From: Escherichia coli
Lineage (GTDB): Bacteria; Pseudomonadota; Gammaproteobacteria; Enterobacterales; Enterobacteriaceae
DNA length: 64,000 nt
Direction: 5' to 3' (one strand)
Assembly: GCF_048403405.1 (NCBI RefSeq)
Contig: NZ_CP183129.1
In this document: in pieces, positions 49,574 through 52,187 of the stretch
Layout of the letters: each line of letters opens with the position of its first letter
How positions within the stretch are numbered: position 1 is the stretch's first letter
Program-made: the position numbers and the translations under genes
The notes under the pieces: model-generated
What the model was told of the DNA's origin: nothing
Seen by the model: the letters and a program-made list of their open reading frames with translations, nothing else
Databases searched by the model: none

Positions 49574-52187
49574 GTATCCTGACCCGGTGGTTGCTTATCC
49601 CGCCGGTCAACGCGCGGCTTATCGGGCGTTATCGCGATTATCGTCGTCATGGCGCGTCGGCTTTCAGCGCGACGCTCGGCTGTTTTTGGTTGATCCTGGC
49701 CTGGATTTTTATTCCGCTGGAGCACCCGCGCTGGCAGCGTATTCGCGCAGAACATAAAAACCTGTATCCGCATATCAACGCCTCGCGTCCGCGTCCGCTG
49801 GATCCGGTCCGTTATCTCATTCAAACATGCTGGTTACTGATCGGTGCATCGCGCAAAGAAACGCCGAAACCGCGCAGGCGGGCATTTTCAGGTCTGCAAA
49901 ATATTCGTGGACGTTACCATCAATGGATGAACGAGCTGCCTGAGCGCGTTAGCCATAAAACACAGCATCTTGATGAGAAAAAGAGCTCGGCCATTTGAGT
50001 GCCGGGGCGCGGCGGTTGATCCTCGGTATCATCGTCACCTTCTCGCTGATTCTGGCGTTAATCTGCGTTACTCAGCCGTTTAACCCGCTGGCGCAGTTTA
50101 TCTTCCTGATGCTGCTGTGGGGGGTAGCGCTGATCGTACGGCGGATGCCGGGGCGCTTCTCGGCGCTAATGTTGATTGTGCTGTCGCTGACCGTTTCTTG
50201 CCGTTATATCTGGTGGCGCTACACCTCTACGCTGAACTGGGACGATCCGGTCAGCCTGGTGTGCGGGCTTATTCTGCTGTTCGCCGAAACGTACGCGTGG
50301 ATTGTGCTGGTGCTCGGCTACTTCCAGGTAGTATGGCCGCTGAATCGTCAGCCGGTGCCATTGCCGAAAGATATGTCGTTGTGGCCGTCGGTGGATATCT
50401 TTGTCCCGACTTACAACGAAGATCTCAACGTGGTGAAAAATACCATTTACGCCTCGCTGGGTATCGACTGGCCGAAAGACAAGCTGAACATCTGGATCCT
50501 TGATGACGGCGGCAGGGAAGAGTTTCGCCAGTTTGCGCAAAACGTGGGGGTGAAATATATCGCCCGTACCACTCATGAACATGCGAAAGCGGGCAACATC
50601 AACAATGCGCTGAAATATGCCAAAGGCGAGTTCGTGTCGATTTTCGACTGCGACCACGTACCAACGCGATCGTTCCTGCAAATGACCATGGGCTGGTTCC
50701 TGAAAGAAAAACAACTGGCGATGATGCAGACGCCGCACCACTTCTTCTCACCGGACCCGTTTGAACGCAACCTGGGACGTTTCCGTAAAACACCGAACGA
50801 AGGCACGCTGTTCTATGGTCTGGTGCAGGATGGCAACGATATGTGGGACGCCACTTTCTTCTGCGGTTCCTGTGCGGTGATTCGCCGTAAGCCGCTGGAT
50901 GAAATTGGCGGCATTGCTGTCGAAACCGTGACTGAAGATGCGCATACTTCTCTGCGTTTGCACCGTCGTGGCTATACCTCCGCGTATATGCGTATTCCGC
51001 AGGCGGCGGGGCTGGCGACCGAAAGTCTGTCGGCGCATATCGGTCAGCGTATTCGCTGGGCGCGCGGGATGGTGCAAATCTTCCGTCTCGATAACCCGCT
51101 CACCGGTAAAGGGCTGAAGTTTGCTCAGCGGCTATGTTACGTCAACGCCATGTTCCACTTCTTGTCGGGCATTCCACGGCTGATCTTCCTGACTGCGCCG
51201 CTGGCGTTCCTGCTGCTTCATGCCTACATCATCTATGCGCCAGCGTTGATGATCGCCCTGTTCGTGCTGCCGCATATGATTCATGCCAGCCTGACCAACT
51301 CGAAGATCCAGGGCAAATATCGCCACTCTTTCTGGAGTGAAATCTACGAAACGGTGCTGGCGTGGTATATCGCACCACCGACGCTGGTGGCGCTGATTAA
51401 CCCGCACAAAGGCAAATTTAACGTTACCGCCAAAGGTGGACTGGTGGAAGAAGAGTACGTCGACTGGGTGATCTCGCGGCCCTACATCTTCCTTGTTCTG
51501 CTCAACCTGGTGGGCGTTGCGGTAGGCATCTGGCGCTACTTCTATGGCCCGCCAACCGAGATGCTCACCGTGGTCGTCAGTATGGTGTGGGTATTCTACA
51601 ACCTGATTGTTCTTGGCGGCGCAGTTGCGGTATCGGTAGAAAGCAAACAGGTGCGCCGATCGCACCGCGTGGAGATGACGATGCCCGCGGCAATTGCCCG
51701 CGAAGATGGTCACCTCTTCTCGTGTACCGTTCAGGATTTCTCCGACGGTGGTTTGGGGATCAAGATCAACGGTCAGGCGCAGATTCTGGAAGGGCAGAAA
51801 GTGAATCTGTTGCTTAAACGCGGTCAGCAGGAATACGTCTTCCCGACCCAGGTGGCGCGCGTGATGGGTAATGAAGTTGGGTTGAAATTAATGCCGCTCA
51901 CCACCCAGCAACATATCGATTTTGTGCAGTGTACGTTTGCCCGTGCGGATACATGGGCGCTCTGGCAGGACAGCTATCCGGAAGATAAGCCGCTGGAAAG
52001 TCTGCTGGATATTCTGAAGCTCGGCTTCCGTGGCTACCGCCATCTGGCGGAGTTTGCGCCTTCTTCGGTGAAGGGCATATTCCGTGTGCTGACTTCTCTG
52101 GTTTCCTGGGTTGTATCGTTTATTCCGCGCCGCCCGGAGCGGAGCGAAACGGCACAACCATCGGATCAGGCTTTGGCTCAACAATGA
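49570..52187 (+). pseudogene. bcsA: cellulose synthase catalytic subunit reading frame split by a 1-bp contraction in an A run (49976-49985)
   Basis: ORF 49570..49998 gives the first 138 codons plus 4 out-of-frame codons; the rest (730 codons with the QxxRW and PilZ regions) is in the +1 frame from 49995. 138 + 4 + 730 = 872 codons if the run gagAAAAAgag is gagAAAAAAgag. Confidence 0.8.

Follow-up and report, generated by a model that had tools for sequence, protein, structure and literature searches.

In the 64,000-nucleotide (nt) stretch of Escherichia coli DNA analysed here, referred to as the window, the cellulose synthase gene bcsA is split by the contraction of a short adenosine run, in which six adenosines (A6) in the closest relatives are reduced to five (A5), and its reading frame is closed by a premature TGA after 142 codons. 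We consider, with a probability of roughly 0.58, that this strain-private deletion is a genuine and very recent loss of function, which would have arisen by replication slippage. None of the six near-identical complete genomes available for comparison carries the A5 run, which is the only insertion or deletion (indel) that distinguishes their bcsA from that of the window, and all other bcs genes of the window are intact.

The sequence around the lesion reads cttGATGAGAAAAAGAGCTCGGCCATTTGAgtg, with exactly 5 A at positions 49978-49982. Translated from the start codon, the frame at this point runs GAT GAG AAA AAG AGC TCG GCC ATT TGA, and the 142-amino-acid (aa) product ends in ...HLDEKKSSAI*, where SSAI represents the out-of-frame tail. 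The elements of the broken gene are as follows (ORF, open reading frame).

49570..49998, plus strand: bcsA 5′ fragment, 142 codons from an ATG start, followed by the premature TGA
49978..49982, plus strand: the lesion, A5 here and A6 in relatives, within codons K137-K138 (AAA AAA to AAA AAG)
49996..49998, plus strand: premature TGA of the original frame, overlapping an in-frame TTG (L143) of the downstream part (aTTTGAg)
49977..52187, plus strand: bcsA 3′ part in the -1 frame, native residues 139/143-872; listed as an ORF at 49995..52187 (730 aa)

Since the lesion falls within codons K137-K138, native BcsA residues 1-138 are retained. The 730-aa ORF has a nominal TTG start and reads ...ELGHLSAGARRLILG... 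through to the normal BcsA C-terminus (...ALAQQ*); its frame is open from 49977, directly after two TGA codons at 49971-49976, and the two bcsA frames overlap by 19 nt only. Adding one A yields a gene of 2619 nt that is identical, both in DNA sequence and in its 872-aa product, to bcsA of strain MS 69-1 (WP_000025849.1). The preliminary description of this DNA had placed the start of bcsA at 49570 and the TGA at 49996 after 142 codons, and had attributed the split to a contraction that 6 A would reverse to give 872 codons; sequence, ORF table and the repaired gene bear out these statements. It had also let the gene resume in the +1 frame, which has to be corrected, as the offset between the two ORF starts (49995-49570 = 425 = 3n+2) places the downstream part, in ribosome terms, in the -1 frame.

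The identity of the gene follows from its position between bcsQ and bcsB, the gene order bcsRQ-A-BZC, the divergently oriented bcsEFG genes, and the presence of GT-2 and PilZ domains. Scanning the 730-aa product against Pfam returned PF00535, PF13641, PF03552 and PF07238 (GT-2, Cellulose_synt, PilZ), whereas the same scan of the 142-aa product gave zero hits. All transmembrane helices, the GT-2 catalytic domain and the PilZ domain, which binds cyclic di-GMP (c-di-GMP), reside in the 3′ part, and the 872 codons present in relatives are here distributed over two frames of 142 and 730 codons. The N-terminal domain of BcsA (approximately residues 1-149) is specific to producers of phosphoethanolamine (pEtN)-cellulose, such as Enterobacteriaceae, and recruits a trimer of the pEtN-transferase BcsG (PMC11379886).

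If genuine, the contraction of the A6 run at K137-K138, for which replication slippage is the putative source, would lead translation out of frame and into the TGA after 142 codons. Only the cytosolic N-terminal domain would then be produced, while the codons for membrane channel, GT-2 and PilZ domains (730 in all) would go untranslated, and the strain would be unable to make (phosphoethanolamine-)cellulose. Polar effects on bcsBZC are possible. Such an allele would probably be null, with cellulose synthesis abolished, an expectation that is well supported by precedent: in clade 8 of sequence type (ST) 95 (strains MS7163 and S88), deletion of a G at nt 556 of bcsA (G6 to G5) results in a cellulose-negative phenotype, and cellulose is restored upon repair of the base (Nhu et al. 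2024, PMC10881479). A null phenotype is thus a well-founded expectation.

The remaining bcs genes, together with the homopolymer affected in ST95, are arranged in the window as follows.

48621-48809, plus strand: bcsR, intact
48821-49573, plus strand: bcsQ, intact, 250 aa; its stop overlaps the bcsA start (ATGA)
50119..50124, plus strand: G6 run in bcsA, nt 551-556 of the intact gene; intact here, site of the ST95 deletion (ΔG556)
52198-54537, plus strand: bcsB, intact, identical to MS 69-1
54544-55650, plus strand: bcsZ, intact, identical to MS 69-1
55632-59105, plus strand: bcsC, intact, identical to MS 69-1
44914-46593, minus strand: bcsG, intact, divergent bcsEFG operon
46590-46781, minus strand: bcsF, intact, divergent bcsEFG operon
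46778-48349, minus strand: bcsE, intact, divergent bcsEFG operon

Like bcsB, bcsZ and bcsC, the genes bcsR, bcsQ, bcsE, bcsF and bcsG are identical to their MS 69-1 counterparts, and no further operon decay is seen in the bcs genes of the window besides bcsA. An operon in this state is what a very recent mutation would leave behind and equally what an assembly artefact would produce. Relatives are likewise annotated with intact BcsQ.

To place the lesion phylogenetically, the complete 64,000 nt were compared to the MS 69-1 genome (NZ_CP146675.1), and only one mismatch and two one-base gaps were found: xylB G8 to G7 at 15775, an intergenic single-nucleotide polymorphism (SNP) at 43409, and bcsA A6 to A5 at 49977. 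Among 5,426 complete E. coli genomes none is identical to the window, and neither of the exact truncated products (the 142-aa BcsA fragment and the 450-aa XylB) occurs on a window-matching contig of at least 64 kb. MS 69-1 belongs to a tight clone together with TUM1226, OX030728, GN02461, TUM14771 and 4621, and counting the run in these relatives, as had been proposed at the outset, gave A6 in 6/6, with the window alone at A5. The SNP at 43409, located between yhjV and the first ldr toxin gene, is a T private to the window where all six clone genomes have G, and is the sole substitution relative to MS 69-1 in the 64 kb. The xylB gene (14523-15976) is also frameshifted, with G7 (15776-15782) in place of G8 and a product of 450 aa instead of 484 aa, and xylose use may be affected. 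This G7 run is carried by 4 of 5,196 complete genomes and, beyond those, by no fewer than five independent assemblies (draft or Logan) that lie within 0-1 SNP of the window, which makes it a real marker of a subclade of the clone. We also considered that the window might be an older 454 draft of MS 69-1 in which both indels are under-calls. This idea was rejected on the grounds of these independent near-identical assemblies, and it is further without support in that the 450-aa XylB product was found in no accession of Human Microbiome Project (HMP) type.

The quality of the assembly within the window is consistent with a real lesion. The window contains 46 homopolymer runs of 6 nt, 19 of 7 nt and two of 8 nt; with the exception of the xylB G run, these 67 other runs of at least 6 nt (21 of them of at least 7 nt) match MS 69-1. 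As the xylB contraction is corroborated by other assemblies, no further uncorroborated homopolymer discrepancy is present in the 64 kb. Moreover, the runs that fail alongside the A5 in error-rich public data, namely T7 at 48491, G6 at 50119 and A7 at 52648, are all correct here.

Several observations weigh against a genuine mutation and are compatible with the possibility, which we rate as tangible albeit not the favoured one, that the strain truly has A6 and an intact bcsA and that the consensus is simply one base short at the homopolymer. The A5 run is a singleton, found in 0/6 clone genomes, and no long draft contig of the clone was present among the matches to the truncated product. The lesion is a homopolymer deletion, and a single base missing from a homopolymer is the error that long-read assemblies classically retain. 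The window passes unbroken through IS150 and three tandem ldr repeats, where the short-read contigs of relatives end, which suggests that it derives from a long-read assembly. Finally, most public A5 calls come from contigs full of other homopolymer indels, many of them from one European Nucleotide Archive (ENA) project and from unrelated lineages, as detailed below.

With regard to these two repetitive regions, the IS150 copy lies at ~21824-23270 between glyS and hokA, and relatives' short-read contigs, e.g. ABTAHG010000032.1, stop there. The three tandem copies of the ldr type I toxin gene occupy 43754-44827; in these copies TUM1226 and OX030728 differ by tight clusters of 3-7 SNPs, a pattern that looks like gene conversion between copies.

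We analyzed the frequency of the contraction across the species using an 81-nt query centred on the A run, with bcsA being found in 5,317 complete E. coli genomes. An exact A5 match was obtained in a single one of these, strain Ch1, and the A5 is absent from the other 5,316, of which all that were sampled span the full 82 nt, in keeping with one uninterrupted ORF. When only complete genomes with identical flanks are counted, 317 have A6, one has A5 and none has A7. A site that is short in 1/5,317 finished assemblies is not error-prone after polishing, which argues against a consensus error in the window. Ch1 (NZ_CP127316.1, loci L022/L023) represents a lineage that is ~1.4% divergent and syntenic with the whole window, and its bcsA is annotated as a 'frameshifted' pseudogene in RefSeq. 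Within the same 64 kb it additionally carries a nonsense codon in bcsB (S653*, TCA to TGA), a bcsZ frameshift, the xylB G7 and a yiaJ frameshift (A7 to A6), so that the operon of the only finished A5 genome looks dead. Either the bcs operon of Ch1 has truly decayed in a mutator-like background or this assembly is of lower quality.

The same counts bear on the preliminary suggestion that slippage in the run could make the lesion reversible, i.e. that the A tract acts as an on/off phase-variation switch for cellulose. Public data do show the same contraction across several unrelated lineages (products P0001, P0011, P0012 and P0015), as might be envisaged for such a switch, yet most of these recurrences stem from error-rich data and the clone is uniformly A6. 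Contingency mononucleotide tracts are typically 8 nt or more in length, as compared to 5 A in the window and 6 A in relatives. The 317:1:0 distribution indicates that this is not a phase-variation tract but one that is stable across the species. Reversibility thus finds no backing in a tract of merely 5-6 nt, and we regard a switch as the most improbable of the explanations considered.

In a protein collection comprising ~15 billion sequences, predicted from public genome and metagenome data, the exact 142-aa product (P0001) is encoded on 32 contigs, and equivalent products of other lineages (P0011, P0012, P0015) on ~25 further contigs. Among the 30 public A5 contigs that were inspected, at least 27 carry other single-base indels, 23 are also short of a G in the G6 run 142 nt downstream, and at least ten originate from one ENA project (ERR1049xxxx runs, CATKV* assemblies) despite belonging to unrelated lineages. 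This recurrence in one project across lineages indicates that the run is under-called in some sequencing chemistries, which is in line with a consensus error in the window as well. The loci of this project (L007, L009, L010, L029, L030, L033-L035, L037 and L044; assemblies GCA_9498120xx and GCA_9498131xx) share a set of contractions comprising A5, G5, T6 and A6, which looks like a systematic base-calling artefact that inflates the apparent number of bcsA pseudogenes in public data. Only two or three A5 contigs appear clean (L005, L006, L033).

Judged from the sequences, most public A5 calls are platform artefacts, given the accompanying indels, the indel combinations that are incompatible with a single tree, the A6 found in complete genomes of the same haplotype, and the origin in a single project. 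Genuine A5 alleles probably exist but are rare. An apparent 'A5 clade' in an ST38/ST405-like lineage was rejected along the same lines: many complete genomes with an identical 6.4-kb haplotype have A6, the co-occurring indels fail the four-gamete test, and the calls are sporadic and mostly errors. The G6 run at 50119-50124 is a hotspot for real mutation and sequencing error alike. As an additional observation, the 90%-identity cluster of P0001, which consists of BcsA N-terminal fragments, has 254 members of 118-149 aa, several of which end near the A run (P0005 ...HLDE, P0008 ...DEK, P0010 ...DEKK); these ends could reflect either nonsense mutations in codon K137, K138 or E139 or breaks of the contigs at the run.

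Returning to the clone, we determined that the window is not the only member with private changes in this region. Strain 4621 (NZ_CP103479.1), a blood isolate, has its own bcsA frameshift, a G5 to G4 contraction at 50546 that RefSeq labels 'frameshifted'; in TUM14771, bcsA carries a missense change at 50092; and in GN02461, an in-frame duplication of 42 nt lengthens bcsQ close to its 3′ end. All three lie within window positions 49267-50546. The seven-genome clone, window included, thereby amounts to four private bcsQ/bcsA changes, one being the A5. Leaving the A5 aside, three of ~9 independent events in the clone fall within 5% of the sequence (binomial p ~0.01, a rough estimate of our own), a local excess that points tentatively to cellulose production being under selection in the clone. 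Taken together, this cluster of private bcsQ/bcsA changes and the otherwise clean assembly favour a real lesion over the loss of a base during assembly.

A real lesion might also be leaky, with a functional synthase still being made from the split gene, either by -1 slippage on G_AAA_AAG (49977-49983) or by reinitiation at the TTG at 49995. A -1 shift within the 19-nt overlap of the two frames would restore the exact wild-type protein (K137-K138-E139), and among tetramers A_AAG shifts most readily in E. coli; tetramers devoid of a stimulator, however, shift at ~0.15%, which equals background (PMC4066793). Folding of 49960-50060 gave a z-score of +0.96, and 170 of 200 shuffled sequences fold at least as well. 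The break is positioned exactly where the N-terminal domain meets the universal catalytic core, the latter matching Rhodobacter BcsA, which is functional without such a domain, and the N-terminal domain on its own binds BcsG (PMC11379886), so that separate pieces are not inconceivable. The TTG, the only start nearby, is nevertheless a poor one, preceded by no more than a weak Shine-Dalgarno-like AAGAG 9 nt upstream; the first in-frame ATG of the 3′ part, at 50109, corresponds to residue 181 and is located past the first transmembrane helices. Additional bcs lesions in other A5 loci, i.e. those in bcsB and bcsZ of Ch1 and a bcsQ W120* in L005, L007, L008 and L014, fit an operon that is dead, whichever event came first. 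Leaky production of an active synthase is thus improbable. Marginally less probable still is a split synthase, in which reinitiation at the TTG would provide the core next to a separate N-terminal domain and cellulose would be altered, not absent. Such a two-piece enzyme could produce unmodified cellulose, or modified cellulose if the N-terminal domain reassembled non-covalently with the C-terminal helix of BcsA.

A programmed -1 frameshift was considered as well and rejected. The heptamer is imperfect, as G_AAA_AAG does not conform to X_XXZ_ZZN and only the A_AAG tetramer is canonical (PMC4066793); no stimulatory structure is present downstream (within 49960-50060, see above); and the two-frame layout is not conserved, being missing in 5,316/5,317 genomes.

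Provided that the A5 is genuine and null, the strain would be cellulose-negative, and such strains display curli without cellulose and an altered biofilm; greater inflammation and invasiveness would also be expected on the basis of Nhu et al. 2024. The same study counted 27 bcs loss-of-function mutations of independent origin in ST95 and found mutations of this kind in 74/76 common E. coli STs, with bcs loss also occurring in Shigella and Salmonella and being linked to higher virulence (PMC10881479). Truncated bcsA is found sporadically in short-read genomes of nearly every ST, and in ST69 both bcsA and bcsC are truncated in 68% and bcsA alone in 3%, figures which refer to gene-level truncations only (PMC10881479, supplementary tables). 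Our literature search on MS 69-1 retrieved nothing on genome quality or cellulose phenotype. Against this background, the window allele would represent one further case of a recurrent pattern in which extraintestinal and commensal E. coli lineages have their bcs genes inactivated, probably under selection, adding one independent hit to a convergent process while leaving its current understanding unchanged; viewed alongside the private changes of the three sister strains, it hints at the clone being exposed to the same pressure. In practical terms, when a homopolymer frameshift in a conserved gene is a singleton, it has to be confirmed at the read level ahead of any biological interpretation. 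Whether the feature is a further private allele of cellulose loss or an error left over from assembly, it is an ordinary one.

Comparison to known systems helps to delineate what the lesion resembles. Akin to dnaX/IS911-type sites (A_AAA_AAG), the window has AAA-AAG lysine codons at which a -1 shift would join the two frames; unlike these, its heptamer is imperfect, a stimulator is lacking and the layout is found in 1/5,317 genomes. The lesion likewise shares with residual homopolymer deletions of long-read assemblies the loss of one base from a homopolymer and the splitting of a conserved gene, but the accompanying errors seen in public A5 contigs are absent from the window. E. coli K-12 reportedly is cellulose-negative owing to a premature stop in bcsQ. 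Both are point lesions in bcsRQABZC; the K-12 lesion is a nonsense codon in bcsQ, whereas in the window bcsQ is intact (250 aa) and the catalytic subunit is broken, so that the preliminary distinction between the two holds. Within the same clone and the same gene, strain 4621 also shows a one-base homopolymer contraction, albeit in a different run (G5 to G4 at 50546) and hence as an independent event. The closest parallel is the ST95 ΔG556 allele, in which a short homopolymer within the first fifth of bcsA has likewise lost one base, creating a premature stop while the rest of the operon is left intact. It affects another run, the G6 corresponding to window positions 50119-50124 and located 142 nt downstream of the A run, with a stop at codon 186, and it is fixed in a large clade with hundreds of short-read genomes, in contrast to the window allele, a singleton. 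Overall, the A5 is private within its clone and its site differs from the ST95 ΔG556, the 4621 lesion and the K-12 bcsQ stop; the view that it constitutes an independent route to cellulose loss is hence correct, but the route is not new, since 27 independent mutations in ST95 and bcs lesions in 74/76 STs have been published, and a homopolymer frameshift in bcsA is an already documented kind of event.

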